Origin: Candidatus Eiseniibacteriota bacterium
GTDB lineage: Bacteria; Arandabacterota; Arandabacteria; Arandabacterales; Arandabacteraceae
Direction: 5' to 3'
Length of the DNA stretch: 46,626 nucleotides
NCBI GenBank assembly: GCA_043810925.1
Contig: JBDRNT010000128.1
Location: forward strand, 1 to 46,626
Both the position numbers and the translations under genes were made by a program. Positions 1,500-17,321 of this stretch are shown piece by piece. Numbering within the stretch: position 1 is the stretch's first letter; every line of letters starts with the position of its first letter. The notes beneath the pieces are model-generated. The model was not told the DNA's origin, ran no database searches, and worked only from the letters and a program-made list of their open reading frames with translations.

Positions 1500-1894
1500 G
1501 TCCAACTCCTCTCAGCAGGACGAGAACCAACCTCGTATGCTTTCTCTGTACTGAATTCTCAGGTATTCGTCAAGAGACCTGCCATCTGTTTTTCGTCTTA
1601 TGGAATTTCCACTCAGCGGCGCACTGCTTCGGGTCAAACTGAGCAATAGATCACACCCGTTGATATATTCCGCTCGGCTCTCCAAACTGCACCATAGGCA
1701 GAACTTTCAGGGTTGTGTTGCGGCTGTAATCTGACTCCTCCAGGCGAATGATCTTCACAGCCTTCTGATGAGTGAGGATTGTCTCGTGCTTGGGCAACTC
1801 GTTGCGAATACGTCATAGGGCAATAGTTGTCAGACTGAAAAACAATCGTGAGGAGAAGCGGCCGCGATGGTGCACGCAGACCATACACCAGGAA

Positions 1895-2335
1895 TCACCG
1901 GATTACCGTGCGGACGATCTTCAGGAAGGATTCAGCCGTCATCAGCGCGTGCTCTGCCTCGATCTTGGAACATGGGATTTGCGGCTCGTAGAAGAAGGAG
2001 TGCCGCTTCCTTCGGATTTGATCGAAGTCGTTGACAAGGGATTCATGATCCTGGCCCAGAACGACGCCGGTGAACTGAACCACTGTCTTGTGCTTGTTCT
2101 TGATATCGGGCCGATACCCTTTGCTCAGCATCAGAGCTTGGCCTGAGCGCAGCATTGCCCTGTAAGCAAAGGTGTGAGCACATTCAGGGTCATCGTCCAG
2201 ATTCCTTCTGGCCGTCTTGAGGTCTATCTCAGCGCGCCCCAAGAGGTTCTCTATTGCCTTTCGATCCACCGGACATCTCTTGATCAAGCCCTGTCTCTGC
2301 AGAACCTCCTCTGATTGTCTATAGATCATCTTCAC
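1895..2335 (-). CDS. HEPN domain protein (putative toxin)
   Basis: 146 aa helical protein; AYRAML...ALMLSKGYR, H-x-x-V and basic R..H motif (RRKRHSFFY); overlaps the upstream MNT gene by 17 nt. Confidence 0.85.
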   Translation of the reverse strand: MKMIYRQSEEVLQRQGLIKRCPVDRKAIENLLGRAEIDLKTARRNLDDDPECAHTFAYRAMLRSGQALMLSKGYRPDIKNKHKTVVQFTGVVLGQDHESLVNDFDQIRRKRHSFFYEPQIPCSKIEAEHALMTAESFLKIVRTVIR

Positions 2336-2894
2336 TTCCGACCACGATCATCTTTGGACTCCTCAGAAGGTCCTCTATGAAACCGCTCTTATCTCGCTTT
2401 CTGGAACGATACTCATCAGGGGAATACACTGTATGGTTGATCTCGCGGCTGAGCTTGGTTTCGAGTCCTTGAATAGCCTTGTTCAGTGCAGACATGTTTG
2501 GACGACCAATGACCATTAGGTCTATGTCGCTCGCAGGCTTCTCGCGGTGTTTGGCGAAGGACCCATAAACAAAAGCGATCTTGATTCCATCTATGGATAA
2601 TAGCGCCGCGCGCAGGCTGCCCTCAACACCCACCGTTTTGGAGATGATCGACTTGAGCTCGTTGTGAAGAGGGTGTTGGGTGTTCAGAGAATATTGGACG
2701 GTGTTCCCTACGCGATTCGTCTTGAGCAAACTATCTCCCAGAAACTTGAGAAGCTCTCGTCGTATGCTCGCGGCAGAGTAACCCAACATGCGCTCGAGCT
2801 GCCTCAGATAGTACGCCTCCGAAGGGTTGGTGAAGAAGAGGGCCAGAAGGTCTCGCCGGGTTCTTGATCTCGTTATGTAGAGGCTATCCAGCAC
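2319..2894 (-). CDS. wHTH-fused minimal nucleotidyltransferase (MNT, putative antitoxin)
   Basis: N-terminal HTH (YYLRQLERMLGYSAASIRREL); GS-x10-DxD motif (YGSFAKHREKPASDIDL); GGGGAG RBS before a GTG start. Confidence 0.88.
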   Translation of the reverse strand: MLDSLYITRSRTRRDLLALFFTNPSEAYYLRQLERMLGYSAASIRRELLKFLGDSLLKTNRVGNTVQYSLNTQHPLHNELKSIISKTVGVEGSLRAALLSIDGIKIAFVYGSFAKHREKPASDIDLMVIGRPNMSALNKAIQGLETKLSREINHTVYSPDEYRSRKRDKSGFIEDLLRSPKMIVVGSEDDL

Positions 2895-2912
2895 GATGAC
2901 TCCCCATTGAAT

Positions 2913-2962
2913 TTGTAATCAATCCAGCTAACAATTGTAAGCGGACTAGCTTACAATGTCAA
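2913..2962 (-). promoter_or_regulatory. Sigma70 promoter of the MNT-HEPN operon with two tandem palindromic operators
   Basis: Minus strand TTGACA (2962-2957), 17 nt, TACAAT (2939-2934); dyads TTGTAAGC-N6-GCTTACAA (2935-2956) and degenerate TTGTAATC-N6-GCTAACAA (2913-2934). Confidence 0.8.
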
Positions 2963-3050
2963 GCGGAATCCACATACAGTTTCACCTGGATAACCTCAGC
3001 GACAGCCTGCTGAGGGGCATTGACCGCTTTCACCGACATGTTCCGCACGC

Positions 3051-3071
3051 CTCCCCAAACAGGATTCGAAC
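3051..3071 (-). other. tRNA 3'-end-like fragment (possible att scar)
   Basis: Minus strand GTTCGAATCCTGTTTGGGGAG resembles T-loop + 3' T-stem + 3' acceptor strand + G discriminator; no 5' half and no CCA. Confidence 0.35.
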
Positions 3072-3220
3072 TCGGTTCAGAGCGGAAGACGTGCACAGCG
3101 CCCCAACTAACTCTTGAAGGAGTGGCACGAGATGTGCTATACTAGTCGCAGCTGCATTGGAATGGCGAGATGACATTGCCCAACCGCTGTAATCTGAGTA
3201 TTGCACAAGGAGGATCTTCG

Positions 3221-4168
3221 ATGATTCTCATTTGCTCCTGTCAGCGCGTATTTAGTCCAGTGATCCGCACTCTGCTTCTCTGCGCTGTGCTTATTGCGAC
3301 ACTCCCAATCACATCAGTTGTCATGGCGGATGAGTGCCCGGAGGAACCCCCGCTTCAGAACTACACAGGAAGCGGGACCACAGTGTGCCCATGTTTCGTA
3401 CCGGGAGAACAGGGCGGAGCTGTGCTGGATGCACCATCTGAGCACTATCCCATTGAGATCCTGCGCGTCGGTATCGGCTGGGGATCCTTGTACGGGGGAA
3501 CGCCGCAGTCGCTCGAGCAGGCCATACACGTTTACGATGCGGGTCTTCCCAACCCCGGGACACCGATAGCAAGTCTCGAAGGTCCTGCTCTCACGGACGG
3601 CTATATCAACGAATTCGATCTCGAACCTCTTCCCGGTGACATAATCGTCAATTCGGGACCGTTCACGGTGACACTCGAATTCCTGAACAGCAACGCCGGC
3701 GACCCATACGCGCCCAGCATGGTTCATGACGGCAACGGCTGTCAGGCAGGCAAGAACGTGGTTTTCGCGATACCCGGTGGCTGGTATAGTGCCTGTGCTC
3801 TTGGAGTTACCGGTGACTGGATCGTTTACGCCGTCTATCGTCAGGTTGAATGCGGCGCAGGTGTCGGTGAGGAGATGATTGCATCCAGCCATCCTGCCTT
3901 TCTCATGAGACCGGAGCCCAACCCGTTTACGCATGAGACACGGTTTGACTTCGTCGTGAGCGAACACCGGCACGTCGATCTATCCGTCTACGATGTCCAT
4001 GGACAACTGGTTACCACCCTGGCAAGCGGCATGTTTCCGCAGGGACGCCACACGGCAGGGTGGACCGGTACGGAATCCGACGGAAGTCAGGTGGCTCCGG
4101 GAATCTATTTCGTCACAATGAAGGCAGGGTCTTTCCACACCACCCAAAGGGTGGTCTTCAGCAAGTGA
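3221..4168 (+). CDS. Secreted Cys-containing protein with C-terminal FlgD-Ig/T9SS-like domain
   Basis: AAGGAGG RBS 3207-3213 before ATG 3221; signal peptide; C-terminal PNPF...LSVYDVHGQLV...W.G...PGIYFV; upstream TTGAAG-18-TATACT. Confidence 0.85.
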   Translation: MILICSCQRVFSPVIRTLLLCAVLIATLPITSVVMADECPEEPPLQNYTGSGTTVCPCFVPGEQGGAVLDAPSEHYPIEILRVGIGWGSLYGGTPQSLEQAIHVYDAGLPNPGTPIASLEGPALTDGYINEFDLEPLPGDIIVNSGPFTVTLEFLNSNAGDPYAPSMVHDGNGCQAGKNVVFAIPGGWYSACALGVTGDWIVYAVYRQVECGAGVGEEMIASSHPAFLMRPEPNPFTHETRFDFVVSEHRHVDLSVYDVHGQLVTTLASGMFPQGRHTAGWTGTESDGSQVAPGIYFVTMKAGSFHTTQRVVFSK

Positions 4169-4169
4169 G

Positions 4170-4269
4170 CATAATTCGGTACCAGCTTACAAATTATCAC
4201 GGGCGGTGCCCCGACCCGGTAGTCGAGCTATTCAAGAACCAGTAATTTGTAAGCTGGTACCGAATTATG
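4170..4269. repeat. Long inverted repeat (27 bp perfect arms, 46 nt spacer), REP/REPIN-like
   Basis: CATAATTCGGTACCAGCTTACAAATTA (4170-4196) and its exact reverse complement (4243-4269); fills almost the whole gap between convergent genes. Confidence 0.92.
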
Positions 4270-5121
4270 TTAGGGGATTATGTCACCCAGGGGGGTGAGT
4301 TTCATGGCCTCCTTCTTCTTCATCAACTCCTTGTACTCACCGGGTTCCACGAAAGCGACGATACGGCATATGCACGACTCGCCATTTACGAAGCGCCACG
4401 GATAGCAGCCGATGGTCACGCGCTGATTGAGCACAAGGTCGATATCGCCGCCGAGATTCTCCGCATGCACGATCGGAATACCGAAGAGTGCTATGTGCAT
4501 GAGCTGGTAGTGCTCCGGCGGGAAGAGATCATCAAGGCCTTTCTTGTACTTCGACTTGAGATAGGCATCGGCCTTCTTGGCCTCCGCCGGCATCCAGTCA
4601 CGTATCTTGGTGTTGAAGGGATGGTCCGCGGAGCCGCAGTCAACACCGAGCCACTTGAGGTTCTTCTTCTTGCACCAGTTGGCGAACTCCATCTGGGGTC
4701 CGGGGTGACGGATCATGTACCGGATCTCGTCGGCTTCCGGCTGTTCCCAGGCATACTTGTGATACCCGGTGTTTATGATGAGGATGTCGCCATCGCGGAC
4801 CTCAACGCGGTCTTCGATGTCTTTGGATGAATAGATGTCGTAGTCCTCGGCCATGTCGCTTAAGTCCACGACGGCCCCGGGGCCGCAAAGATAATCGTTG
4901 AGAGGCAGGCTGGCGATATCACCCCCGTGCGTGCAGAAGTGAACCGGCCCATCGAGATGAGTACCCACGTGGTTACTGGTCGTTATCAGCTGGCCGTTGG
5001 CACCGTTGGGGGCGAGCCGCTTGAAGAACTTCAGCTGGAGCGGCTCATATGTCGGCCATGGAGGCGTCATCACGCTCAAGGGCTGGGTGAGATCGATCAT
5101 TCCGAATTCAACCGGCTTCAT
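4270..5121 (-). CDS. Cyclase family metal-dependent amidohydrolase (kynurenine formamidase-like)
   Basis: DLTQPL, HxGTHxDxPxH (HVGTHLDGPVHF), GVDCGSADHP, HAENLGGD motifs. Confidence 0.92.
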   Translation of the reverse strand: MKPVEFGMIDLTQPLSVMTPPWPTYEPLQLKFFKRLAPNGANGQLITTSNHVGTHLDGPVHFCTHGGDIASLPLNDYLCGPGAVVDLSDMAEDYDIYSSKDIEDRVEVRDGDILIINTGYHKYAWEQPEADEIRYMIRHPGPQMEFANWCKKKNLKWLGVDCGSADHPFNTKIRDWMPAEAKKADAYLKSKYKKGLDDLFPPEHYQLMHIALFGIPIVHAENLGGDIDLVLNQRVTIGCYPWRFVNGESCICRIVAFVEPGEYKELMKKKEAMKLTPLGDIIP

Positions 5122-6584
5122 GGTTGCTTCCTCCTTCGCGTAAGAGACTGATGAAATGCTCTGAATGCATCCTCAAAACATGCAAGGGGCGGCTCGACGA
5201 GGCCTGCTCCGATCTGTCCGATGCCGGGATCCTTATGTGCAATGCCCGTGTTTACTGCAGGCACAATGCCTTTTTCAACAATTTCCGTCACATCTATTCC
5301 GGTCGGCGTTCCCCGGAAACCGAGGGACGGGATCCTGAAGTTCGTGCTCTCACCCACCGTTATGTCATACATGGAAAGCGTGAAGTTGATCGCATCCTGA
5401 GGCGTGCCGCCCACAAACTCGACGATCGCGGGTGCGGCGGCCATGGCGAAGCCGCCTATACCATAAGTTTCGCAGATCGTACTGTCGCCGATATCTGGAT
5501 TCGCATCCTTAGCACCGTAACCCGGGAAGTAAAGCCCTTCGACCTCTGGTGCGGGTGCGGTAAACCACGTATCGGGAAGCGAGCTTAGGCGGATTCCGAA
5601 GTCCGTCCCGTTTCGCGCCATGGCTACGATAACACTGCTGTTCGCGATACCACTGGCCGAATCGAGGCAGCTCTTCCCGGCCGGCATCGTAAGATTCAAG
5701 AAGAAGTGATCGTTCATGTGCATGAACTTAAGGACATCGCTCTTATCCTTGGCATCGGCCGGACCCTCGGCAATCGATGGGGCCAGCTCACGGATAAGAA
5801 GCGACGTACCCGCCTTGTTCCTGTTGTGGCCTTCATCCCCCATCTGGAGAGCCTGGGCAATGATCGTTCTGAGGTCGGTCTCTCCATGGATCTTAAGTGC
5901 CGCCTTAAGAACAGGCGCAAGCACGTCTTCCATCCACTTGAGCCGCTCAATTACCTCGGCGCTGAAGGCACCGTAACGAAGGACTTTGCCAAGTCCCTCG
6001 TTCAGCGTACAGAATGCTCTGTTGCCCGAGTGTCTGTTCTCGACAATCCAGACAGGCATAGAGGGTGATATGATTCCGGCCATGGGCCCCACGGCTGCAT
6101 GGTGGTGACAGGGCTCGAACGTCACGTCGCCGGAGGCGGCCATCTTCCGCGCACTGCTCTCATCCCTGGCAAGTCCTTCGTAAATCAGCGCGCCGATCAC
6201 GGCGCCCTGCATGGGTCCGCACATTCTATCCCACTCTACGGGCGGCCCTGCATGCAGGATGAGGCCCTCCCTCATCCCCGGGATTTCGTCTGCGGCCTTC
6301 CCGATCCCGACGATAAAGGGGTGTGACAGGTTTATTCGCTCGAGGGCCTCGGCGTTCGCGCGATCCACCAGGTCCTGGAGTGCAACCTTCTTCCCCCCGG
6401 CCTCAACCTCACCCGTACGGATCATCTTGAGAATTGAGATCAGCCCCTCATCGCCCGAGCACGGCACGGTCCAGCCAACCTGTATACCCCGTCTGCCCTG
6501 GAGATGGAGTGCGTCCGTAAAGATCCGGCTTCCGAGATTGGCCACAACGATATCGCTCGTAAAGAGCTCTGCGATCCTACTCAC
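5118..6584 (-). CDS. DUF1116 family protein (YahG/YlbE-AllG-like) with N-terminal FdrA-tail module
   Basis: ILHAGPP, PCHHHAAVGPMAG, LNEGLGKVLRYGA, MGDEGHNRN, NPDIGDS, NTGIAHK; GGAGGAG RBS before GTG 6584. Confidence 0.92.
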   Translation of the reverse strand: MSRIAELFTSDIVVANLGSRIFTDALHLQGRRGIQVGWTVPCSGDEGLISILKMIRTGEVEAGGKKVALQDLVDRANAEALERINLSHPFIVGIGKAADEIPGMREGLILHAGPPVEWDRMCGPMQGAVIGALIYEGLARDESSARKMAASGDVTFEPCHHHAAVGPMAGIISPSMPVWIVENRHSGNRAFCTLNEGLGKVLRYGAFSAEVIERLKWMEDVLAPVLKAALKIHGETDLRTIIAQALQMGDEGHNRNKAGTSLLIRELAPSIAEGPADAKDKSDVLKFMHMNDHFFLNLTMPAGKSCLDSASGIANSSVIVAMARNGTDFGIRLSSLPDTWFTAPAPEVEGLYFPGYGAKDANPDIGDSTICETYGIGGFAMAAAPAIVEFVGGTPQDAINFTLSMYDITVGESTNFRIPSLGFRGTPTGIDVTEIVEKGIVPAVNTGIAHKDPGIGQIGAGLVEPPLACFEDAFRAFHQSLTRRRKQP

Positions 6585-8127
6585 CGGACTCTCCTCCAAG
6601 GGCTTTACGTGCAAGTTCACATGCCTGCGCGTTGGTCTCCGCTACAAGAACACCCGCCGACAGGAGAGCCTGGCGCTGGCGATCGTAGCCCTGGGGATCC
6701 TGATGCGTCCCGCAGATGCTCGCGATCACAATCGGACCGCCCGGGCCCCGGCGGTTTTCACCGGACTCCCCGGCCAGGCAACCGGCGATCTCACCGGCAG
6801 GATCGGCACTGCAGCCATAGCCAAGCACCACATCGAGGAGGATGACCGCCGTCTCGCCGTCCGATACTTCCTTTGCAAGTCTCGTGAGCCGGTACGATTG
6901 ATCGATCATGGGGTGGGCCCTGCCCCGGGTAAAGACATCATCACCCAAGTCCACAATCGTGTGAGCGGTACTTGTCCCGGGATCGTCAAGCATCACGAGT
7001 CCGGGCAACTTGAGATTTGTATGAATCGTATCCAGCGACCGGCCGAGTATGAACGCGGCCTCCTGGGCAAGCGTTCCACCGCTGAAGAGCCCCCTAAGAT
7101 ATTTCCGTGATGGATCGAGCGTGCATCTGAGCTCCAGGAGATTCTCATCCGTGCCGGTGTTGTCAGGCCGTGTGGACCCGGAGACTCGTCCACCGGCTGC
7201 GAGCGCGGCCTCGGCCGCCGTCTCAGCCAGAGTACGTGTGAAGACAAGGTTGGCGTCACGCCGGGATTCACTCTGGCCCGCGAAGTAGATAATGCAGGGC
7301 TTGCCGGTGCCGCGTGCCACTTTGAGAATCTTCTTGGCCACCTTCTCATCCGGGAGCTTCGATACGACAGCGATGACCTCGGTTTCCGGATCATCAATCA
7401 GGGCCTTAAGCCCCATTATGGTCGTCACTCCACCGATTGTCCCGGCGACATCCCGCCCGCCGGTCCCGATGAGTTGCGATATCCCAAGGCCGTTCCTCGC
7501 AAGGATCGCCGAGACTTCCTGCGCCCCCGTGCCGGAGGCGGCAACCATTCCGATCTTCCCCGCGGGCACGCTGTTGGCGAAACCGAGCCCGGCCCCGTTT
7601 ATTATCGCGGTCCCGCAGTCGGGTCCCATGAGAAGCAGTCCCCGCTTGGACGCCACGGTCTTCAGTTCACGTTCGTCCTCAATGGACACGTTATCGCTGA
7701 AGATCATCACATGCTTGTTGCTGCGTAGCGCCTTCATAGCTTCGTAAGCTGCGAACTGACCGGGGACCGATATCAGGACGAGATTGATTTCAGGGTATTC
7801 CCTCATTGCACTTTCAAGACTTCCGGGTGCACGGGATTCTTCGGAGCCTGTTGGAGCACCGCCTTTAAGTTCTCCTCGTACCATCTCGAGCGCAGCTCCG
7901 AGCGTGGCTTCGTCTTCGGCGTCAAGTGCTATCATGAGATCATTGGCTGTTACATCCTGCACCTCTGATGCATCAAAGCCCACCTCGGCCATCAGGGCGA
8001 GATTGGTGTCGGTCGCCATCGCAACCATGGCATTCGCGACACCTGCGGCCTCACTCGCCTTCTTTGAGATCCGCATCAGCGATACGGAATCAAGATATGT
8101 CGATTTCTCAATGACAATGCGTTTCAT
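6577..8127 (-). CDS. fdrA: FdrA/YahF (AllF)-like acyl-CoA synthetase-like protein
   Basis: YLDSVSLM, ISVPGQFAA, FSDNV, MGPDCGT, ASGTGAQE, GTGGRD, GLFSGGTL, DLGDDVFTRGRAHPMID; start taken at MKRIVI (8127). Confidence 0.92.
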   Translation of the reverse strand: MKRIVIEKSTYLDSVSLMRISKKASEAAGVANAMVAMATDTNLALMAEVGFDASEVQDVTANDLMIALDAEDEATLGAALEMVRGELKGGAPTGSEESRAPGSLESAMREYPEINLVLISVPGQFAAYEAMKALRSNKHVMIFSDNVSIEDERELKTVASKRGLLLMGPDCGTAIINGAGLGFANSVPAGKIGMVAASGTGAQEVSAILARNGLGISQLIGTGGRDVAGTIGGVTTIMGLKALIDDPETEVIAVVSKLPDEKVAKKILKVARGTGKPCIIYFAGQSESRRDANLVFTRTLAETAAEAALAAGGRVSGSTRPDNTGTDENLLELRCTLDPSRKYLRGLFSGGTLAQEAAFILGRSLDTIHTNLKLPGLVMLDDPGTSTAHTIVDLGDDVFTRGRAHPMIDQSYRLTRLAKEVSDGETAVILLDVVLGYGCSADPAGEIAGCLAGESGENRRGPGGPIVIASICGTHQDPQGYDRQRQALLSAGVLVAETNAQACELARKALGGESGE

Positions 8128-9037
8128 GCGTAACTCCACATAAGCCGGCGGCCTCAAACCAGGCCAGGACACCGGCAAGCATATCATGGCCGGATGTCGC
8201 TCCGAGCCCACTGAGCCTGTTTACCGCCGATTTCACAACGTACGTATCGCTGTCACCCAGAGCATGAAGCAAATCCGCCAGGGACTCGGGATAGTGTCCG
8301 GCCAGTGCCGCCTTAAGCATGAAGAAGGCAGGCAGACTCGTACGACCGAGCGGTGAGGCGATGTTACAGAAAACCGCCTCCCTGAACTTATCATCATGTG
8401 CAAAGCAGTAGGACGCACCCAGGAATCCGGTAAGGAAATCATCCCCGCCTGGAGTAAGTCCCAGGCCCAGACCCATTATCAAGCCCATTGCCTCAAGCGT
8501 CCGGTCAAGTCCGCCCGAAATCCATGAGTCATGCAGCTGTGATACGGCCCCGGAGATCTTGGTGCGGATCAATGTGTCCAGCGGCTCGCGTAGCGGTCTT
8601 GATTGACCGTCCACTACTCCAAGAAACCATGACTCGGTCGATACCTCTCCCAGGAGACCTCTCAGGATACGTCCCATCCGTACAAGGCGCGCAGGTTCCA
8701 GGCCGTACACCGGGTCAAGCCTGGATTGCCAGACCTCGGTCTTCTCAAGGTCGATGCTTGCCTTGGCTTTGCCCAACATGATCCGGGTGTGATCCACGGA
8801 TACGCTTTCCCCGACGCAAGCGCCGAGAAAGCCGTCGTCACCGGATGAGCTCCAACCTTCTATTGCAACACAATATGCATGAAGCGGGACGTCCGCCGGG
8901 TGGAGACTCACCCATGTCATATCGTCACAGAGGACATTGACTGTGCGCCGGTAAACAGAATGGACCCTCCCACGACGCTCGCGGCCATTCAGAGTCGAAA
9001 GGACCAGGGAACTTGCTTTCGTGGCTTTTAACGTCAT
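8108..9037 (-). CDS. DUF2877 family protein (YahE/YlbF-AllH-like)
   Basis: GRVHSVYRRTVN, GLGLGLTPGGDDFLTG and GATSGHDMLAG signatures. Confidence 0.9.
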   Translation of the reverse strand: MTLKATKASSLVLSTLNGRERRGRVHSVYRRTVNVLCDDMTWVSLHPADVPLHAYCVAIEGWSSSGDDGFLGACVGESVSVDHTRIMLGKAKASIDLEKTEVWQSRLDPVYGLEPARLVRMGRILRGLLGEVSTESWFLGVVDGQSRPLREPLDTLIRTKISGAVSQLHDSWISGGLDRTLEAMGLIMGLGLGLTPGGDDFLTGFLGASYCFAHDDKFREAVFCNIASPLGRTSLPAFFMLKAALAGHYPESLADLLHALGDSDTYVVKSAVNRLSGLGATSGHDMLAGVLAWFEAAGLCGVTHETHCH

Positions 9038-11376
9038 GGCTTCTTCAGGTCTTCGTGGAGAGCGAGAAACACGTTTTCGGGACTCAGGGGGAGTGCCTTT
9101 ATCCGCTTACCCGTTCCATTGAAGAGCGCGTTGGCAATCGCCGGGGGCACCGATATCATGGGATGCTCGGCAACACCCCGTGCGCCTAGCGGGCCTTTAT
9201 CATGCGGGGTCTCAACGAAGATCTGTCTCATCTCCCGCGGGACGTCCCTTACGGTCGGGATCTTGTAGTCCGTCAGTGAGTCGTTAAGCAGGTGACCTTC
9301 GCTGTCGTACACATACTGTTCGATAAGAGCGGTCCCGACTCCCTGGACTCCCCCGCCAATCACCTGTCCCCTGCACAGTCCCTCGTTTATTATGCGACCG
9401 ACATCAAAAGCGGATATGAGCTTCGTAACTTCAATCTCACCCGTCCGCGTGTCGACTTCGATCTCGACCGCATGGGCTCCGTAAGTCCAGCAAAGCGCGG
9501 GCAGACCCTGGCCGGTTTCGAGATCAAGGTTGGTGAGCCCCTCGGCCACGTAACTGCCTCTTCCTATGACCGGGCCGCCGATCGAGTTGCCGTTGGGGAA
9601 CATGTAACCCATGACCACCTTCTTGTAGTCGAGCCCCCTGGCCGTGTCGCCCTTGACAAAGACACGCCCGTCTTCGACATCGAGATCGTCCTTATCCACA
9701 CCAAGCGCCTTGGATGCAGTCGTCTTGATCTGATCGATCGCATCCTCGGCGGCTCTTAAGATACAGAGTCCTCCCATAACCGTAAGGCGGCTTGCCACCG
9801 TCTGCCAGTCATAGGGGTTGTAGTCGGTGTCCTTAGCCCAGATGAAGTGAATCTTCTCAAACGGGAGTTTGAGCGCGTGGGCCGCTATCTGGCTTAAGGA
9901 AGTCGCGGTACCCTGACCGTAGTCGACACCGCTTACGAGTAAATCGACAGTTGTATCCTCATTGAACTTCATGATCGCCGCTGAAGCCGTATTGGGGGGC
10001 ATCGCCGGGGCCTTGTGTAGCACCGCAATCCCCTTTGCCCTCACCTTGCCGTCAGCCCTCTTTGCGGGAGCGGTCTCCTTGCTCCATCCTATCTCCCTCG
10101 TCACCTCCTCGAGACACTTCCGCACACTGCCCGTATGCTCAGTTATCTTCTCACCCGTTATGGTCGTTGATCCTATATCGAGAAGGTTCTTCATTCTGAA
10201 GTCGACGGGATCCATGTCGAGCTCCCTTGCAACAATGTCCATCTGGGATTCGATGGCCCAGAAGAGCTCGACATGACCGAAACCTCTGTAGGCGGTACCG
10301 AAGGGTTTGGAGGTGTAGACGGTGTATGAATCGAGTTTGACGTTATCTATATCATATGGACCTGCACCCGAATAACCCGACGCCCTGCCGATGTTGACCC
10401 CGTAGTCGGCATAGGCACCCGCATCCCAGATGTACTCGATCTCTTGCGCCACGATCCGCCCTTCGCGCGACACACCCGTCTTTATCTTCGCATGAAGTCC
10501 CTGGCGGCACGGAAGGGTGATAAACTCCTCCGTCCGTGTCGCGGTCACTTTGACCGGTTTAAAACCTGCGGCCTTGGAGAGAAGTGCAACAAGCGGCTCA
10601 AGATGGATACCGGCCTTGCCGCCGAATGCACCACCGAGATACGGCACCACCACGCGTATGCGGGCATGCGATATACCGAGCGCCACGCTCAGGAGGTTCC
10701 TCACAGCAAACGGTGACTGTGCGGATGTCCATATCTGGATATTTCCGGTCGGCTTCCAGTGGGCGATACTCGAATGGGTCTCGAGCGGGACATGCTGGAC
10801 CTGGGGCGCGTAGAACTCGTTTTCTACAATCTTGTGGCTTTCCTTAAAACCGGCTTCGACATCGCCTTTTCGCAGTTGGAACCGGTTGGCTATGTTGGTG
10901 CCTCCCATGGGGCAGAACACACCCTTCACGCATTCGTAGGTGTGAAGCTGTTCGTGGACAAGTGGAGCATCGGGCTCAAGCGCCTTCTTCGCATCGAGCA
11001 CCGGTTCGAGCATCTCGTACTCCACATCGATAAGACCCGCGGCCTCATGCGCGATCTCCTCACTCACAGCAGCAACGGCCGCCACAGGCTCTCCGAAGTA
11101 ACGCACCTTCTCTGAAGCGAGGATGGGCTTATCGATCATGTAAAGACCGACACGATACGGGAGTTCCGCGCCGGTGAGCACCGCCTTGACACCCGGGAGG
11201 CTTCGTGCCCTGTCGACATTGATGCCGACGATCTTTGCATGGGCGTGGGGACTTAGGAGCATCCTTGCATAGAGCATACCCGGCAACTTCATGTCGGCCG
11301 TATAGACGGCACATCCCGTCACTTTCTCAAGCCCGTCTATTCTCGGTATCGACTTACCGATCAGATCATCTGCCAC
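9034..11376 (-). CDS. Xanthine dehydrogenase family molybdopterin-binding large subunit
   Basis: KVTG.A.Y..D, SPHAHA, GGAFGGK, AYRGFG, GQGT, DYKIPT, RGVAEHP; GTG 11376 after GGGAGA. Confidence 0.95.
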   Translation of the reverse strand: MADDLIGKSIPRIDGLEKVTGCAVYTADMKLPGMLYARMLLSPHAHAKIVGINVDRARSLPGVKAVLTGAELPYRVGLYMIDKPILASEKVRYFGEPVAAVAAVSEEIAHEAAGLIDVEYEMLEPVLDAKKALEPDAPLVHEQLHTYECVKGVFCPMGGTNIANRFQLRKGDVEAGFKESHKIVENEFYAPQVQHVPLETHSSIAHWKPTGNIQIWTSAQSPFAVRNLLSVALGISHARIRVVVPYLGGAFGGKAGIHLEPLVALLSKAAGFKPVKVTATRTEEFITLPCRQGLHAKIKTGVSREGRIVAQEIEYIWDAGAYADYGVNIGRASGYSGAGPYDIDNVKLDSYTVYTSKPFGTAYRGFGHVELFWAIESQMDIVARELDMDPVDFRMKNLLDIGSTTITGEKITEHTGSVRKCLEEVTREIGWSKETAPAKRADGKVRAKGIAVLHKAPAMPPNTASAAIMKFNEDTTVDLLVSGVDYGQGTATSLSQIAAHALKLPFEKIHFIWAKDTDYNPYDWQTVASRLTVMGGLCILRAAEDAIDQIKTTASKALGVDKDDLDVEDGRVFVKGDTARGLDYKKVVMGYMFPNGNSIGGPVIGRGSYVAEGLTNLDLETGQGLPALCWTYGAHAVEIEVDTRTGEIEVTKLISAFDVGRIINEGLCRGQVIGGGVQGVGTALIEQYVYDSEGHLLNDSLTDYKIPTVRDVPREMRQIFVETPHDKGPLGARGVAEHPMISVPPAIANALFNGTGKRIKALPLSPENVFLALHEDLKKP

Positions 11377-11842
11377 GTTGCTTCTCCCGGGAGGCGGCAT
11401 CAAGGACCGCCGCCACTATGGGTTTGTAGCCCGTGCACCGGCACAGGTTGCCGCAAATCGCCTCGGTGACGTCCTCCTCGGTCGGGTCGGGGTTTCTCAT
11501 GAGGAGCGCGCGGGCGGACATGAGCATACCGGCCGTACAGAACCCGCACTGGATCGCCCCATTGTCTAGGAAGGCCTGCTGAAGTGGGCTTAGCTCACCA
11601 CCGGGTGCTTCACCCTCGATGGTCCTCACCTGCCGGCCGTCGATCTCGCGCGCAAGCACCAGACATGAATTTACCGGGATACCGTCTAGTAAGACCGTAC
11701 AGGCGCCGCATTCACCCTTGCCGCAACCTTCCTTGGTCCCCGTGAGCGCAAGATCCTCACGGAGCACCTTAAGGAGCGACCAGTTATCCTCAACACTGAC
11801 TGATATGCTCTCGCCGTTAACCTTGAACGTGATTACCTGCAC
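11366..11842 (-). CDS. Xanthine dehydrogenase family 2x[2Fe-2S] small subunit
   Basis: GTKEGCGKGECGACTV, NSC, QCGFCT, NLCRCTGY. Confidence 0.96.
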   Translation of the reverse strand: MQVITFKVNGESISVSVEDNWSLLKVLREDLALTGTKEGCGKGECGACTVLLDGIPVNSCLVLAREIDGRQVRTIEGEAPGGELSPLQQAFLDNGAIQCGFCTAGMLMSARALLMRNPDPTEEDVTEAICGNLCRCTGYKPIVAAVLDAASREKQRGR

Positions 11843-12687
11843 TACGTACCACCCTGCTTGAGTCTTCGTTTCAAGAGATCAAGAATCTCGCCCGTCATAA
11901 ACTCGGCCATACGTTTCCTGTAAAGACCCGAACCTCTTACATCATCTATGGGAGCTATTGCCCGGAGAACTGTATCGATCACCTGCTGCCTGTCATCGAC
12001 ACCTGCTCCCTTGAGGCCGTCTATAAGAAGCGGTGTTGTCCCGACGGCGCCTAAGGCCAGCCTCAGGCCCCCACCGTTTCCGATTGCCCCGGCAGCATTC
12101 ACGACTGAAAGATCGTGACCGCGGATTCGGCCCTGCTTAAGAAACGCCGACACCGTACCGGACGAGGGTGGGATCACGACTTCGGTTACGACTTCACTCA
12201 CTTCGCAGCAGGTCGTCTTGACCCCGCTGAAGAAGTCCTTGAGTGAGACAAGCCGCGCGCCCTGCTTCGACACGAGCCTGAGCTGAGCGTCAAGCACGAG
12301 GAGCGGTGGACCCAGATCGCAGGCAGGCGACGCATTACACAGGTTACCGCCCACCGTAGCCCGGTTTCGTATCTGGTAGGTCGCAAGCACCGATGCGGCC
12401 TCATGAATCGCCTGCATGGGGCCCGTCATTGTGTCGGATTCTGTGAGCTGGTTCACAGTAACACATGCACCAATAAGTAGAATGCCGTCTTCGGTAAATC
12501 CGATAGTGTGGAGCTGAGCGATGCCCTTGATATCTACCAGGCACTCGGGCGCATGCACACCTTCGTGCATACCGATCAGGAGATCCGTCCCTCCGGCAAG
12601 GATACGCGTGCTGTCATCGCAGTCCCTAAGAAGACCAAGCGCTTCATCGAGAGTCCCGGGCCTTAGATAGCGAAACTTGGGAAGCAT
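11842..12687 (-). CDS. Xanthine dehydrogenase family FAD-binding medium subunit
   Basis: AGGTDL, QIRNRATVGGNLCNASPACD, PIDDVRGS..YR. Confidence 0.95.
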   Translation of the reverse strand: MLPKFRYLRPGTLDEALGLLRDCDDSTRILAGGTDLLIGMHEGVHAPECLVDIKGIAQLHTIGFTEDGILLIGACVTVNQLTESDTMTGPMQAIHEAASVLATYQIRNRATVGGNLCNASPACDLGPPLLVLDAQLRLVSKQGARLVSLKDFFSGVKTTCCEVSEVVTEVVIPPSSGTVSAFLKQGRIRGHDLSVVNAAGAIGNGGGLRLALGAVGTTPLLIDGLKGAGVDDRQQVIDTVLRAIAPIDDVRGSGLYRKRMAEFMTGEILDLLKRRLKQGGT

Positions 12688-12813
12688 GCCTCTCCACCGT
12701 ATGCATGACCAATAACTTGCAAATGCGTTTCGAATAGCGTAAACTTTATTCCCTCAAGTTTCAAGGGATTTTACGATGGATAAGGGTTTGATAGCCAATA
12801 AGGAGACAGTGAA

Positions 12814-13488
12814 ATGGACCCGAAAGAAGCCATGCTGAGACCCCCGGAGAAGGCGCTCCCGCCGTATCCGGCCAAGTTCGTGAACCTCAAGAACGGTGAG
12901 AAGATGGTGATCCGCCAGGCCTCGCGTGAAGAGGTACCGGCCCTGCTCAAGGCCGTCTCTCCGCTCATTAAGGTCGAGCGCGATTTCTACGACATCGTGG
13001 GGGCCCGGACCTACGCGGAGCTTCTCGGGTGGAAGCTCTACAGGGTGCGGGATGAGTACTGCCTGGTGGGTCTCATCGACGGTGTTATTGTCGGGCAGGT
13101 AAACGGCCGGACAATGAACGATGATATCGGGGTCAGCTATCATACGATCGCGATGAGACGGGGACTGCGTATCGGAAGCCTCCTCTTCGCCGCTAAGATG
13201 GAGTACCACCTGGAACACCTGGGGCAGAAAGAGGTCTACATCGTGGCCGAAAGCCCCATAGGTTTCCAGAGATGGATGACCGAGTACGGTCTTGAAGAAC
13301 GCCCCGACGTCCAGCACGAACTCGGCGGGGTCATGTCCTGGTCGCTTACGAAGGAACTTTACTTGAAGGCCAAGGACCGGCTGGTTCTGGGCGAGCGCCC
13401 GGTTCCTGAGGAGTTGCTTGAAACTTCTAAGAAGATCACGGTGCCCGATGCTGATACACTTGTTATGCAGATAACCGGGAAGGTATAA
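12814..13488 (+). CDS. GNAT-like N-acetyltransferase, divergent from the XDH operon
   Basis: AAGGAG RBS; motif-A-like RRGLRIGSLL with GNAT-type strand/helix pattern (MVIRQAS, LVGLIDGVIVG, EVYIVAES). Confidence 0.7.
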   Translation: MDPKEAMLRPPEKALPPYPAKFVNLKNGEKMVIRQASREEVPALLKAVSPLIKVERDFYDIVGARTYAELLGWKLYRVRDEYCLVGLIDGVIVGQVNGRTMNDDIGVSYHTIAMRRGLRIGSLLFAAKMEYHLEHLGQKEVYIVAESPIGFQRWMTEYGLEERPDVQHELGGVMSWSLTKELYLKAKDRLVLGERPVPEELLETSKKITVPDADTLVMQITGKV

Positions 13489-13492
13489 GCAT

Positions 13493-13864
13493 ATGGTATC
13501 GATGATTTACGGTATGTCGCGGGTCGTAATGTGTTTTCTGCTTTCGATACTCGTCTCCACGATCGTGATCAGAGCGGGACTCAGCCGCATGGCAGAGATC
13601 AAACACAAACCGTTTCCGACAACGGGATTCTGGATAGGTTTCTTCGAGACCATACTCGTCTTCGCCTTCGTGCTTGAACGCGAGATGACGGGACTGGCAA
13701 TCATTGTGGCTGCCAAGCAGTTCCTGGGACCCAGGACGGATACGACCGAGCAGGACCGCATACGCTATCGGCTGGGGTCGCTGATGAGCGTGGCGATTGC
13801 GGTGATCTTCGCCATCATCGCAAGGGCGTGGGTCTCCCACCTTTTGTGGGTCCTGATGGCCTAG
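13493..13864 (+). CDS. Small membrane protein (DUF3307 C-terminal-like)
   Basis: 3-4 hydrophobic segments; G.WIG.FE.IL...AAK...Y.LGSL.S pattern. Confidence 0.65.
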   Translation: MVSMIYGMSRVVMCFLLSILVSTIVIRAGLSRMAEIKHKPFPTTGFWIGFFETILVFAFVLEREMTGLAIIVAAKQFLGPRTDTTEQDRIRYRLGSLMSVAIAVIFAIIARAWVSHLLWVLMA

Positions 13865-13880
13865 AGGCTGGGGTAAAACC

Positions 13881-14013
13881 TGGGGTCAGGCTTTGAATTC
13901 TGGAATCAGACTTCTTCAGCACTGCTGATATGGGATTCCTGAATTCAAGACCCGGTCAGGCCAGCTGAGCATTCTCCCCACGACCTGATTCCAGAATTCA
14001 AAGCCTGACCCCA
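13881..14013. repeat. Long inverted repeat (29 bp perfect arms), REP/REPIN-like
   Basis: TGGGGTCAGGCTTTGAATTCTGGAATCAG (13881-13909) and exact reverse complement (13985-14013); degenerate internal copy GATTCCTGAATTCAAGACC at about 13934-13952. Confidence 0.92.
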
Positions 14014-17000
14014 TTACCGCAATACCAGCATTTTGCGCGTCGCGGTGAAGGTGCCGGCCTCTATCTTGTAAAAGTAAACGCCGCTACTTGCGCGTTCACC
14101 TGATGAGTTAAGGCCATCCCAATGGGCTGAGTGCAAACCGGGTCCCCTCGTCCCGTCTTCCAAAACCCGCACCATCTGCCCGAGGGCGTTATAGACCTTG
14201 AGATCGACGCGGCAGGCCCGTCCTACCTCATAGCTTATGCTTGTAGGTCCCAGGCAGGGATTGGGTACATTCTGGGCCAGCATCCACTTATAGATTTCAT
14301 CCGGGCCCACAACATCGGCTGGACCACCCCCCGAAGATGGCAGACCGAAGATATCTTCGAGAATCACCCGCATCAACTCGACCCGGCCGTCATAAGTGCC
14401 TGCATCGAAATCAGGAGCCGCAGCCGGAGCATCACCACTACAGTAGGTCCGTTCATGGTTCGCAGTCGCGCAGAGATCGAAGTCGACAAACACACACTGA
14501 CCCACGCCCTGAGACTCAACGTAGATCGCCGCATCCGAAGGATCATACGCCGGGGCCGGATTGAGTAAACGGAGCAGTGTCTGGGCCGTGTAGCCCGTCG
14601 GAGGCGAGCTATTCGCAACGACATAGGACATGTCCTTGAAATACGGGCACTCCCGGTAAAATAGAAGCGTGTCAAGATCGATCCCGACGGGACCGCCAAG
14701 CACCTGAAGCGTTTCGACACCGGCCGCATAAAGATGTGGCTTCTCGAATGCGCCTTCCATTTCCCCAAGATATGTGCAACCCATGATGCCGTCGAGGAAC
14801 TCACCACCAAGCGAATCCTCACCGACGCCACCCTGTGCCGGATCGGCCATGTTATATGCTATCCTGTCCCCGCAAAGCACCACCTTACCGCCAACGGCCA
14901 GATAGTCCCTTATGGCCTCCTGCGCTTCCGCATCAAAGAGGTAATTCGAGAAGTACGGCCCGCAGAACCAGACAATCGCATCATAGTGAGCACCGAACTC
15001 GATCGGATGTACATGAACGTTGCTGCCCGCTCCGCTGATGTCATACTTATCATAACAGTAGCCGGCATCGGTAAGTGTCTCCTCATATATGTCCTCAAGC
15101 GGCTTCTTGTCGGACAGTTCGGTCACGCACGGTGCGTAATCGTAGTTCTTCCTGCCGTAGCCATCCACCAGAAGTACCCTCGGGCCGGTATAGGTCACAG
15201 GATACATCGGAAGGATCGAGAAATCGTGGTAGTCTCCTACCTTACCCGTGTGGTAGGGGCTCGATGGGTCCGCTGTTCCCGGGAAGTATCCTTCATTACT
15301 CAACTCATCCGTGGCCTTTACGTAGTACCACACCTCGGTACCCGCTACCCAGGTATCGAGACCGAAGTCATCCGGGCAGAGCGTACCGTAGTACTCGCCT
15401 CCAAGTTCGGGTCGGGTCGGGTAAAACGGTACATTCATTTCCATGCTCACGGATACCCAGCCGGCACCGCCATCGACGCTGCCGTAGAGCTCCACGCTTG
15501 TGAGGCTATCCTTGTCCGACACATCCAGGTAGAGTTGATCGGTCTTCCGGATTCGCACATCGTCATAAGGCGGACCCGAATAGTGATCGATCGTATCAGG
15601 ATTATAAACATCAAAGGACGAGTTGTAGCCGCAGAGATTATCGCAGAACGTATCCTGGAGCATATCGATTGTGCGTGCGCTGAAGAGTGTCGCATGAGCG
15701 TCGTAGAATCCTATGGATACGTTGTCCACAATGAACTCCGTACTCGTATGTTTGCCGCGGCAGAAGTCAGTCGGCGCCGACACGTCCTGAAGGTCCCAGG
15801 CAAACTGCATCGAGTCGGGGGTCGAGGTGTACCAGTAGCTCACATCCTCGGTGCGATTGAAGTTCCAGAAGAAGCAGCCGCCACAGATCCAATAGTCATA
15901 GCTCTTCCAAGGGCACCATCTCGCGAAGTCGCTGTCATAGAAGCGGACCCTGACGGCGCTATAGTCGCAGGTGTATTCCAGGGTGCATCTATAATCATCA
16001 TACTGAACGACACAGCCGCTGTTTGCCATGGGCATACTCGGGGACATCAGTCTGTAATACCATCCGTTCCTCCATGGTGCGCCGCCGGTATAGCCGCTCT
16101 CAGGTCGTCCTCGGAAGGTGGTTGATGAATCAAGCGTGCATGTTGTCCGATTGCCACCATCACCACCTTCGTATGGCGGGTCGGCATCATGTACCATATG
16201 CCACAGGTCTATCACGCCATCCGGATCGGGTAGGCTCCAGTAGGCCGGATCCAGGATGCCGGTTTCGAAATCCTCGGCATAACGTTCACTGTCACCCCAT
16301 ACCCAGACATTATCGATGAAGGCGCCACCGTCGGTGTTGCCTCTCCCGTCTTGATCACTCCAGGCCCCGTCCGACACAAACCTCCATCTGAACCTAGGTC
16401 CCGAATCCAGAACGAGCGTATCTGGAGTTACCACTCTGTAGAAGGCGGGCTCCGCGGGAATGGGCCGCTCCTGCCAATTCGCATTATTGGGCTGCCCCCC
16501 ATCGGTGTTACCCCAGTAGTCGGGATTGCCACCCCCGGGAGCACCACACTCGCCGCCGGGGTTGTTGCTTGTAGCGTTAAACGTCGCAAGTGTTACCCAC
16601 ACCGAATCATTCCATATATCGAGATAGAAGTAGTCGTACTTGCACTCCATATCGTACCGGGGATCGAAAAGCAGCGTACAACCGTTGGCGACGTTAAAAG
16701 TGTCCGGAAGCGTGAGTTGGACAATACAGTTCCACTGATTGCCATAGCCGGGGGTCTTGCCGGGAGACCAGGTGCCGCACTCAACGGGATAGCCGTCCGT
16801 CCAGAGTGAATCGGATCCACACCAGAGCGCGCAATCCCCGCAGTAGGCACGCTGGTCGGCGCGATAGGTATCAAGATGCCAGAAGTTTATGTCCGTCGGG
16901 GATGACTGCGCCCTTACATCCGTGTGTGAGAAGCATCTCGAATCCCACGGCGGGTTGGTCCCGCAGGAGTCGCCTCCCTCGAAACACCAGGTCTCAAGCG

Positions 17001-17253: not shown

Positions 17254-17321
17254 GGCGTGCCACCTCCTGACCATCCGGGCATAAGGCCTGTAGAAAACCC
17301 GCACATGTACCTACGATATTG

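Follow-up and report, generated by a model that had tools for sequence, protein, structure and literature searches.

What would a bacterium degrade with a molybdenum hydroxylase, a putative carbamoyltransferase and a metal-dependent amidohydrolase that are all encoded in one operon? The question is raised by positions 4270-13488 of a 46,626-nt contig from a genome of 3.85 Mb in 185 contigs (91.7% complete; this contig, C128, is called the window as a whole hereafter), whose nearest public relatives are metagenome-assembled genomes (MAGs) labelled Candidatus Eisenbacteria. Here seven overlapping minus-strand open reading frames (ORFs) encode the flavin adenine dinucleotide (FAD), [2Fe-2S] and molybdenum (Mo) subunits of a xanthine dehydrogenase (XDH)-family enzyme, a DUF2877/FdrA/DUF1116 trimer and a PF04199 cyclase. 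An earlier sequence-only reading had offered the route from uracil through barbiturate and ureidomalonate to carbamoyl phosphate as one option. Our analysis points in the same direction, and we put at roughly 45% the probability that uracil or thymine is oxidised to a barbiturate-type ring, opened to ureidomalonate and split to carbamoyl phosphate (a source of ATP) and a malonyl-type coenzyme A (CoA) ester.

The seven genes claimed by that reading were recovered by ORF calling at the same places, with the same overlaps and with the same families in Pfam and NCBIfam. The locus is composed as follows:

11842-12687, minus strand: FAD-binding subunit, XDH family, 281 aa, first gene of the operon (Pfam FAD_binding_5, 1.4e-46, and CO_deh_flav_C)
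11366-11842, minus strand: [2Fe-2S] subunit, 158 aa (Pfam Fer2_2, 1.6e-30, and Fer2)
9034-11403, minus strand: molybdopterin-binding catalytic subunit, 789 aa, probable N-heterocycle hydroxylase (Pfam Ald_Xan_dh_C, MoCoBD_1 and MoCoBD_2)
8108-9037, minus strand: AllH/YahE-like DUF2877 subunit, 309 aa (Pfam PF11392 AllH, 1e-19)
6577-8211, minus strand: FdrA/YahF-like subunit resembling succinyl-CoA synthetase alpha, 544 aa as the longest ORF (Pfam Ligase_CoA and CoA_binding; NCBIfam FdrA subfamily, 468.2 bits, cut-off 433)
5118-6620, minus strand: AllG/YahG-like DUF1116 subunit, 500 aa (Pfam PF06545 AllG, 1.7e-101)
4270-5121, minus strand: cyclase-family metal-dependent amidohydrolase, 283 aa, last gene of the operon (Pfam PF04199, 5.5e-33, 114.6 bits, cut-off 23.1)
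12688-12813: divergent intergenic region of 126 bp, presumed from its position to hold the promoters
12814-13488, plus strand: GNAT-fold protein, 224 aa, with no Pfam model (AlphaFold2 model and Foldseek)
13493-13864, plus strand: small hydrophobic protein (orf123), 123 aa, an ORF of hydrophobic sequence whose membership is uncertain

From the cyclase end to the FAD end the six junctions overlap by 4, 44, 104, 4, 38 and 1 bp, counted on longest ORFs with unverified start codons. FdrA homologues align only from about residue 29, and its true start probably lies some 28 codons downstream, which would cut the 104-bp overlap to about 20 bp.

To be a functional unit, the set should travel together, and the sequence-only reading hinged on this linkage being conserved. 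Scanning one genome per species with the cyclase, we retrieved 39 loci at 64-96% identity, most of them in MAGs with short contigs. By the labels of their source records they belong to Eisenbacteria-like MAGs, Synergistales/Synergistaceae/Thermovirgaceae (including the complete genome 'Bacterium M3-1'), the cultured isolate Clostridium rhizosphaerae, many Bacillota MAGs, one Endomicrobia MAG and one Chloroflexia MAG. Genes were counted by tblastn with the window and accessory proteins (E<=1e-8, at least 50% query coverage), a procedure that undercounts divergent genes such as DUF2877. DUF1116 was present in 29 of the 39, FdrA in 28, the Mo subunit in 29, the Fe-S subunit in 29, the FAD subunit in 26, DUF2877 in 20 (an undercount) and the GNAT gene in 16. 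Accessory genes were less frequent: NCS2 permease 15, thiolase 14, DUF35 12, CdaR-like regulator 7, OadB 5, cytosine-deaminase-like gene 4, PucR 3 and carbamate kinase 1. DUF1116 and Mo genes occurred together in 24/39 loci, spread over Eisenbacteria, Synergistota, Bacillota and Chloroflexia, and at least one partner in 34/39. Furthermore, the cyclase gene was found in 16 of the 18 species genomes of the window's phylum and in all ten of high quality.

The order of these genes differs between groups. The Eisenbacteria-like loci have DUF35<thiolase<GNAT and, divergently, FAD>FeS>Mo>DUF2877>FdrA>DUF1116>cyclase. The Bacillota order is GNAT>thiolase>DUF35>DUF2877>FdrA>DUF1116>cyclase>FAD>FeS>Mo>NCS2, and Synergistota begin with a second Mo/Fe-S pair and the cytosine-deaminase-like gene and end with the NCS2 permease and PucR. 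Such retention of genes through rearranged order is the signature of a functional unit.

A second survey started from DUF1116, a family of at least 8000 clusters at E<=1e-30. Its query, a family member from a Spirochaete MAG that shares 60% identity with the DUF1116 protein of the window, retrieved 57 loci from metagenome contigs. A cyclase orthologue (53-69% identity) was present in 20 of them, and in 20/20 it was the next gene after DUF1116, with gaps of 12-250 bp downstream. These 20 loci also carried Mo (10), FAD (11), Fe-S (11), GNAT (9), NCS2 (7), OadB (6), carbamate kinase (6), carboxyltransferase (4), biotin carrier (4), thiolase (4) and DUF35 (4) genes. The 37 cyclase-less loci, with carbamate kinase in 17, Mo in only 1 and GNAT in 2, have the plain allFGHK/yahEFGI-like arrangement. 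In a quick maximum-likelihood tree of 90 DUF1116 sequences, supported by the Shimodaira-Hasegawa-like approximate likelihood ratio test (SH-aLRT) only, the cyclase-linked label changed 6 times against a shuffled mean of 29.0, and 0/500 shuffles were as low; this result shows clustering and not independence, because relatives share labels. The two E. coli proteins, AllG and YahG, form long branches that belong to none of the well-supported groups, AllG falling outside the cyclase-linked ones. One exception to the rule that cyclase follows DUF1116 was L102 (4940-11386), where GNAT-thiolase-DUF35 is followed by FdrA-DUF1116, with neither cyclase nor XDH genes within 10 kb downstream.

The most complete relative, L072, reads NCS2-PucR-DUF2877-carboxyltransferase-OadG-biotin carrier-OadB-GNAT-FdrA-DUF1116-cyclase-carbamate kinase-FAD-FeS-Mo. 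On one Chloroflexia contig two modules stand in tandem. The first (L064, G021:C8:64000-83000), directly upstream of L034, is FdrA-DUF1116-cyclase(47%)-cyclase(41%)-FAD-FeS-Mo; the second (L034) is CoxG-like-NCS2-FAD-FeS-Mo-carboxyltransferase-biotin carrier-OadB-cyclase(64%), and a further DUF1116-cyclase pair lies on contig C17. The trimer, cyclase and XDH trio has itself been duplicated and diversified there, and modules of this kind may form a family that serves different heterocycles.

These data make it hardly credible that unrelated genes came to lie together by chance and share no pathway. Five of the 39 cyclase loci had no partners. In L003 and L021 the cyclase stood at a contig end or on a 2.6-kb contig, and only L023, L035 and L040 were well flanked, by unrelated neighbours (for instance tetratricopeptide repeat proteins, kinases, beta-Ala-His dipeptidase and ornithine carbamoyltransferase); nothing else specific speaks for chance. 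The L040 neighbour was considered as pyrB/pyrC and proved to be an ornithine carbamoyltransferase equivalog. However, the adjacency persists over at least four phyla despite rearranged order, window junctions overlap by 4 bp, and 4/5 genomes whose cyclase locus is without DUF1116 have a DUF1116 gene elsewhere. Both surveys thus effectively refute coincidence.

What reaction might the trimer catalyse? We compared the window proteins with the annotated allFGHK and yahEFGIJ regions of E. coli K-12. DUF1116 aligned with YahG over 468 aa at 49% identity (459 bits; window residues 19-486, near full length) and with AllG over 412 aa at 48% (397 bits), the latter alignment beginning at residue 85. FdrA was 41% identical to YahF (363 bits) and 40% to AllF (292 bits), and it matched the FdrA structure 3dmy with 256 bits. 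DUF2877 was 24% identical to YahE over 221 aa (60 bits) and 34% to AllH over only 104 aa (39 bits). The window order DUF2877-FdrA-DUF1116 is that of yahEFG, and for this reason 'YahEFG-like' is the better label, in line with the long-form DUF1116 subunit, although the relationship to both is distant. E. coli YahEFG is accompanied by the carbamate kinase-like YahI and the amidohydrolase YahJ; it shares the window's order and scores higher than AllFGH at 24-49% identity, but the yah cluster has no XDH, cyclase or GNAT gene, and neither a YahI-type carbamate kinase nor a YahJ-type amidohydrolase adjoins the operon in the window. The cytosine-deaminase-like amidohydrolase of the Synergistota loci is 25% identical to YahJ, and the carbamate kinase of the window's genome is 49% identical to YahI against 37% to AllK.

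E. coli AllFGH is the sole characterised member of the trimer family, YahEFG being still without assigned function. Purified AllFGH interconverts oxalurate plus phosphate and oxamate plus carbamoyl phosphate, and the authors propose oxamate carbamoyltransferase as the ureide nitrogen recovery route of urease-negative bacteria (PMC11326118). The same logic may apply to the window's genome, where no urease was detected (best 19.8 bits). In five other cluster-bearing genomes carbamate kinase exceeded its cut-off in 5/5 and urease was found in 0/5. Like AllFGH with AllK, the window encodes the three families together (34-48% identity) in a urease-negative host, presumably for the same reaction type (acyl-urea + phosphate -> carbamoyl phosphate + amide) with ATP formed by carbamate kinase. 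It differs from the E. coli order FdrA-DUF1116-DUF2877 and in placing the trimer in one operon with an XDH enzyme and a cyclase. Furthermore, no allB, allC or allD was found in the cluster or the genome, and the carbamate kinase lies on another contig. The sequence-only reading had noted that allantoin genes were missing from the locus, and this held for the 91.7%-complete genome, in which the allantoinase equivalog was not found (best 264.8 against 357.85) and AllC and Ldh_2/AllD had no match. A 2025 survey reports allFGHK beside triuret/biuret genes in nitrifiers (PMC12625717), which fits a general acyl-urea role of the family. The motif GDDxFTxG+xHPMID was invariant in 8/8 aligned FdrA homologues, E. 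coli's included, and judged from the sequences no feature of FdrA tells a carbamoyltransferase from another activity. The DUF1116 gene of the operon is the only AllG-family gene in its genome. The DUF2877 model (AlphaFold2, mean predicted local distance difference test score (pLDDT) 76.5) has an N-terminal beta-barrel and a C-terminal helical domain bearing an invariant GxGxGxTPxGDD; a Foldseek search of the PDB was empty at E<=0.001 and the highest Z from VIA-align over 48,161 chains was 4.5, so that no convincing solved relative emerged.

By both its domain and its metal-binding motif the cyclase belongs to PF04199, a family of metal hydrolases of kynurenine formamidase/isatin hydrolase type. 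HxGTHxDxPxH and further His/Asp/Glu residues were invariant in 20 orthologues, and the motif was also seen in the alignment with KynB structures. Nor is it an equivalog of kynurenine formamidase, the identity that would have refuted the sequence-only reading: TIGR03035 gave 51.5 bits against a cut-off of 223.05 and the best KynB match in the PDB 41.8 bits. A complex prediction for the DUF1116 subunit with the cyclase scored 0.00 against a mark of 0.32 and has no bearing either way on binding.

Mo-cofactor, two [2Fe-2S] and FAD domains in adjacent genes (Pfam E 1e-29 to 1e-75) place the first three proteins in the three-subunit XDH/aldehyde oxidase family. The FAD subunit is 32% identical to E. 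coli XdhB, the [2Fe-2S] subunit 47% to XdhC, and the Mo subunit 30% to XdhA and to XdhD. No NCBIfam equivalog cut-off was reached by the Mo subunit, for which 4-hydroxybenzoyl-CoA reductase (4-HBCR) alpha ranked first (543.5/994.55) and XdhA_XDHase second (531.5/780), nor by the FAD subunit (XdhB 154.9/287; 4-HBCR beta 131.9/404.55, matched in two stretches). A strict xanthine dehydrogenase is likewise not indicated by PucD (433.2/783.65) or XdhB-type (302.8/849.5) scores. In the PDB the Mo subunit matched 4-HBCR alpha (1rm6, 360 bits), CoxL (295), quinoline 2-oxidoreductase (279), bovine XDH (204) and Rhodobacter XDH (178). Its motifs are GGAFGGKA, AYRGFG and GVAEHP. AYRGFG and the C-terminal G/A-E-H-P/S motif were kept in 30/30 cluster-linked Mo orthologues, and in all 30 GGxFGGK was followed by Ala or Ser, never by Glu. 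We take the Arg of AYRGFG to be Arg880 of bovine xanthine oxidoreductase, the Glu of G/A-E-H to be the catalytic Glu1261, and the residue after GGxFGGK to be the xanthine-binding Glu802. With this assumed mapping, it is plausible that the Mo subunit is a competent hydroxylase lacking the xanthine-specific glutamate.

The structural match to 4-HBCR brings in a different chemistry, in which the FdrA trimer is an NDP-forming CoA ligase for a heteroaromatic acid, the XDH-family enzyme (de)hydroxylates the CoA thioester as 4-HBCR or furoyl-CoA dehydrogenase does, and thiolase/DUF35 and the GNAT-fold protein continue the CoA-ester chemistry. 4-HBCR alpha is indeed the best PDB relative by 360 against 295 bits, FdrA retains its CoA_binding and Ligase_CoA domains, and CoA-dependent partners (GNAT fold, thiolase/DUF35, family-III CoA-transferase, acyl-CoA carboxyltransferase) are frequent. 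However, the 4-HBCR equivalog scores were far below cut-off for alpha, beta and also gamma (171.7/257.8), and the beta subunit of 4-HBCR has an extra Fe-S insertion, the FAD subunit here being 281 aa. Moreover, this chemistry leaves the carbamate kinase of seven related clusters without a role, the presence of nucleobase permeases and of a cytosine-deaminase-like gene speaks for free bases, and the one characterised trimer is a carbamoyltransferase. We regard it as very unlikely.

Clues to the substrate came from the linked permeases, typed by BLASTP against E. coli UraA, RutG, XanQ, UacT, GhxQ and YbbY. In Clostridium rhizosphaerae the Mo gene is followed by one for a permease that scores as a uracil-permease equivalog (639 bits, cut-off 477). 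Among the 15 linked NCS2 permeases two are UraA orthologues (58-61% identity to E. coli UraA), nine score about 180-210 bits to UraA/RutG and less than 105 bits to UacT/XanQ, and four, all from Synergistota, are ambiguous (UacT 137 bits, RutG about 120). Four Synergistota loci also have the cytosine-deaminase-like amidohydrolase (277 bits, below the cut-off of 438).

The Synergistota loci lend some weight to a purine or oxopurine (xanthine, urate), or a ring-opened ureide of one, as substrate of the same enzyme logic. UacT is the best match of their permeases, they carry a second XDH, and PucR-family 'purine catabolism' regulators stand in L017, L018, L036, L070 and L072; XdhA_XDHase is also the second-best NCBIfam match of the Mo subunit. 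XDH homologues act in anaerobic urate degradation (PMC12507026). Against purines, 11/15 linked permeases are of pyrimidine type, no xanthine dehydrogenase equivalog cut-off was reached, the presumed Glu802 position is Ala or Ser in all 30 orthologues, PucR-family regulators are not purine-specific, and the decarboxylase of related loci suits a malonyl or methylmalonyl unit, something that the breakdown of a purine ring does not give. A purine substrate is therefore unlikely in our judgement.

That decarboxylase, and a carbamate kinase, bear on the products. Carbamate kinase lies inside seven related clusters (1/39 cyclase-seeded loci; 6/20 cyclase-bearing DUF1116 loci): directly after the Mo gene in L033 as an equivalog (369.7 bits, cut-off 358.25), between the cyclase and FAD genes in L071 and L072, and within L067, L068, L083 and L101. 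In these clusters the trimer is the only carbamoyltransferase candidate. A module made up of a carboxyltransferase of the MmdA subfamily (752 bits), a biotin carrier, OadG and the Na+ pump OadB is inserted into related clusters: in L034 it separates the XDH genes from the cyclase, and in L072, L075 and L080 it precedes the trimer; L075 also has a neighbouring BioY biotin transporter. MmdA-type biotin-dependent complexes decarboxylate malonyl-, methylmalonyl- or glutaconyl-CoA. An MmdA-like Na+-decarboxylase in the cluster fits a malonyl or methylmalonyl product, and these are exactly the C4-C5-C6 units of uracil and thymine, respectively. The relatives thus carry the parts of Na+-translocating (methyl)malonyl-CoA/malonate decarboxylases of MmdABCD type. 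In the window itself, neither the decarboxylase nor the thiolase/DUF35 module stands beside the cluster; its genome has an oxaloacetate-decarboxylase-type OadA/OadB pair elsewhere, as well as thiolase/DUF35 pairs on two contigs (C45 and C106), and contig C160 ends with a DUF35 gene on its own.

The divergent GNAT gene, listed by the sequence-only reading as a mere neighbour, is a conserved member of the system, with orthologues of 55-95% identity in 16/39 and 11/57 related loci. Its assignment stood at the level of the fold and found no backing from sequence profiles, as no Pfam, NCBIfam or PDB sequence match was obtained. The AlphaFold2 model (pLDDT 87.6) gave a best Foldseek E of 7.9e-7 (probability 1.0, template modelling (TM) score about 0.5), and among 248 PDB matches at E<=0.001 those listed were GNAT acetyltransferases with TM scores of about 0.45-0.55; protein-language-model neighbours were named N-acetyltransferase. 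The gene is usually accompanied by a thiolase/DUF35 pair or the decarboxylase module, a link to CoA chemistry that had not been foreseen. The linked thiolase is of archaeal type (PRK06064, 395 bits), and compared with the archaeal thiolase/3-hydroxy-3-methylglutaryl-CoA (HMG-CoA) synthase/DUF35 complex the GNAT-fold protein stands in the place of HMG-CoA synthase. L019 and L083 carry instead a family-III CoA-transferase resembling oxalate CoA-transferase (370.5 bits, cut-off 522). The window and the 96%-related locus L002 keep the GNAT gene and have the small membrane protein (13493-13864) where relatives have thiolase/DUF35; this protein has a counterpart only in L002 among the 39 loci.

The oxalate CoA-transferase similarity also suits another cyclic ureide or imide as substrate, such as a hydantoin or imidazolone degraded via parabanate to oxalurate, or an environmental barbiturate-like compound, with the trimer acting as a true oxamate carbamoyltransferase or on another acyl-urea. 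It is in keeping with the 40-49% identity of the trimer to E. coli AllFGH, whose substrate is oxalurate, and with several related loci that lack XDH, so that an already oxidised ring is possibly the common substrate. It leaves unexplained, however, the nucleobase-family permeases and the MmdA-type decarboxylase module, and no known natural source of such a substrate accounts for a gene in 16/18 genomes of a phylum. We find it distinctly improbable.

For uracil or thymine, the following sequence of reactions can be proposed from homology and gene neighbourhood; only gene families, cross-phylum linkage and accessory gene identities were observed directly. The base would enter, in relatives, via a UraA/RutG-like permease. 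The molybdo-flavoenzyme would hydroxylate C6 with water, converting uracil to barbiturate and thymine to 5-methylbarbiturate and releasing two reducing equivalents. The cyclase, a putative metal amidohydrolase with intact HxGTHxDxPxH, would hydrolyse the cyclic ureide, with the acyl-urea ureidomalonate as product; since the cyclase is the partner that always adjoins the trimer, what it forms is probably what the trimer takes as substrate. By analogy with AllFGH, the trimer would convert ureidomalonate and phosphate to carbamoyl phosphate and malonamate, and the unlinked carbamate kinase could turn carbamoyl phosphate into ATP, NH3 and CO2. The C3 or C4 amide or acid might then be converted to a CoA thioester, aided by the GNAT-fold protein, and, in relatives, be decarboxylated by the biotin-dependent Na+-pumping (methyl)malonyl-CoA-decarboxylase-like complex or passed to thiolase/DUF35. 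As a speculation, the four reducing equivalents from two uracils would balance the reduction of two acetyl-CoA to butyrate, with thiolase as a possible entry to this electron sink. In an alternative order, the GNAT-fold protein would open the imide ring by CoA thiolysis, the trimer would act on ureidomalonyl-CoA, and the cyclase would hydrolyse malonamoyl-CoA; the CoA-binding domain of FdrA would therefore have a role, but this order is less parsimonious because many clusters are without the GNAT gene.

Several observations weigh against the uracil/thymine pathway. The closest solved relative of the Mo subunit is a CoA-ester reductase and not a nucleobase hydroxylase. L075, L080, L081 and L094 have trimer, cyclase, GNAT and decarboxylase genes and no XDH in range, and carbamate kinase is absent from 38/39 cyclase-seeded loci. 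The Synergistota versions, with their PucR regulators, second XDH and ambiguous permeases, look more purine-like. Conversion of malonamate to a CoA ester is energetically uphill by our own estimate; neither the GNAT-fold protein nor the thiolase/DUF35 pair is readily accounted for, the GNAT reaction least of all. In the window's genome no NCS2 permease homologue was found (tblastn 1e-5, three NCS2 queries). The carbamate kinase that the sequence-only reading had proposed to look for does exist, on contig C65 and unlinked to the operon, with 357.4 bits against the cut-off of 358.25. It stands beside two ornithine carbamoyltransferase (OTCase)-family genes and may serve another pathway. Finally, a D-hydantoinase/dihydropyrimidinase equivalog is encoded on contig C70 (13296-14654, L051; 604.5 bits), and given a bona fide dihydropyrimidinase the reductive route may already be present in the genome. 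The suggestion of uracil, barbiturate and ureidomalonate thus gained comparative support from pyrimidine-type permeases, in-cluster carbamate kinase and MmdA-like decarboxylase, and lost ground on the Synergistota loci, the missing NCS2 permease and the unlinked carbamate kinase.

Around the C65 kinase (428-5225, L044) are the two OTCase-family carbamoyltransferases, weakly similar to YgeW (103 bits), a pyridoxal phosphate-dependent enzyme and an adjoining DDE transposase. Together with the C70 D-hydantoinase this set resembles the ygeW/ygeX/yqeA/hyuA set of the reductive urate pathway (PMC12507026). The small membrane protein at 13493-13864 is the only nearby candidate for base import in the window's organism, and no PucR homologue was found in its genome by tblastn.

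The proposed route shares its intermediates uracil, barbiturate and ureidomalonate with the oxidative pyrimidine pathway of aerobic actinobacteria (uracil/thymine dehydrogenase, barbiturase, ureidomalonase), whose first enzyme is reported to be a molybdo-iron-sulfur flavoprotein. It would differ in several respects. The ring would be opened by a PF04199 cyclase-family enzyme and not by one of AtzD/barbiturase fold; the acyl-urea would undergo phosphorolysis to carbamoyl phosphate and not hydrolysis to urea and malonate; and the hosts are anaerobes in which linked Na+-decarboxylase and carbamate kinase imply energy conservation. A search for the AtzD/TrzD barbiturase family PF09663 drew a blank in the window's genome, though its control, too, matched in none of 14 genomes. 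The reductive urate pathway of E. coli and C. difficile (XdhD-YgfM, YgfK, SsnA, HyuA, YgeW, YqeA, YgeY, YgeX) is likewise an anaerobic N-heterocycle route with an XDH-family enzyme, ring amidohydrolases, a carbamoyltransferase and carbamate kinase (PMC12507026). It is different in that YgeW is of OTCase type, XdhD is reductive (the window Mo subunit is 30% identical to it), and cyclase, DUF1116, DUF2877 and GNAT are absent.

The same source, a 2025 paper, recognises four pyrimidine degradation routes, namely oxidative, reductive, Rut and URC (PMC12507026). We tentatively suggest, at somewhat less than an even chance, a fifth: an energy-conserving anaerobic oxidative fermentation of uracil or thymine, in which the cyclase replaces barbiturase, a YahEFG-type trimer and carbamate kinase provide ATP, and a GNAT-fold enzyme feeds malonyl- or methylmalonyl-CoA to a Na+ decarboxylase or thiolase. 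In the full-text literature searched, with subscription literature outside its scope, no description of this gene combination was found. If the proposal is true, the YahEFG branch of DUF1116/DUF2877, a new PF04199 subfamily and a Pfam-less GNAT family would each receive a first function, and the large DUF1116/DUF2877/FdrA family, with its at least 8000 sequence clusters, would gain candidate substrates. The route would also be a near-universal trait of Candidatus Eisenbacteria-like bacteria, spread further in Synergistota, Clostridia, Chloroflexia and metagenome relatives, and so assign a core metabolic trait (16/18 genomes) to a candidate phylum known only from MAGs. Energy would be conserved twice, through carbamoyl phosphate and a Na+ gradient, which would explain fermenters living on nucleobases from decaying biomass. 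Cultured carriers, Clostridium rhizosphaerae YIM B02515 and 'Bacterium M3-1', make the hypothesis directly testable.

As for regulation, Rfam at gathering thresholds detected no riboswitch or leader in the window, nor anything but one tRNA in seven related loci. A consensus scan of 3900-14100, the 126-bp divergent region included, gave 6 promoter-like and 6 terminator-like sites, not above the level of shuffled sequence (mean 4.9 and 6.6, respectively). Between the convergent orf123 and 14014-17304 lies a perfect inverted repeat of 29 nt (arms 13881-13909 and 13985-14013, 75 nt apart). More than 20 contigs of the genome share 33 copies of the 20-base arm cores; most copies are paired at a spacing of 80-175 bp, several sit at the ends of contigs, and the repeat looks like a dispersed element of miniature inverted-repeat transposable element (MITE) or repetitive extragenic palindromic (REP) type. 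Beyond the operon, the proteins of window positions 3170-4168 (plus strand) and C160:21-2705 have C-terminal sorting domains of type IX secretion (Por_Secre_tail/FlgD_ig), which by their sequence indicate such a secretion system in this organism. At 2319-2894 (minus strand) a nucleotidyltransferase weakly similar to the MntA antitoxin (27 bits, cut-off 60) overlaps a 146-aa ORF at 1895-2335 (minus strand), and the two may form an MntA/HepT-type toxin-antitoxin pair.

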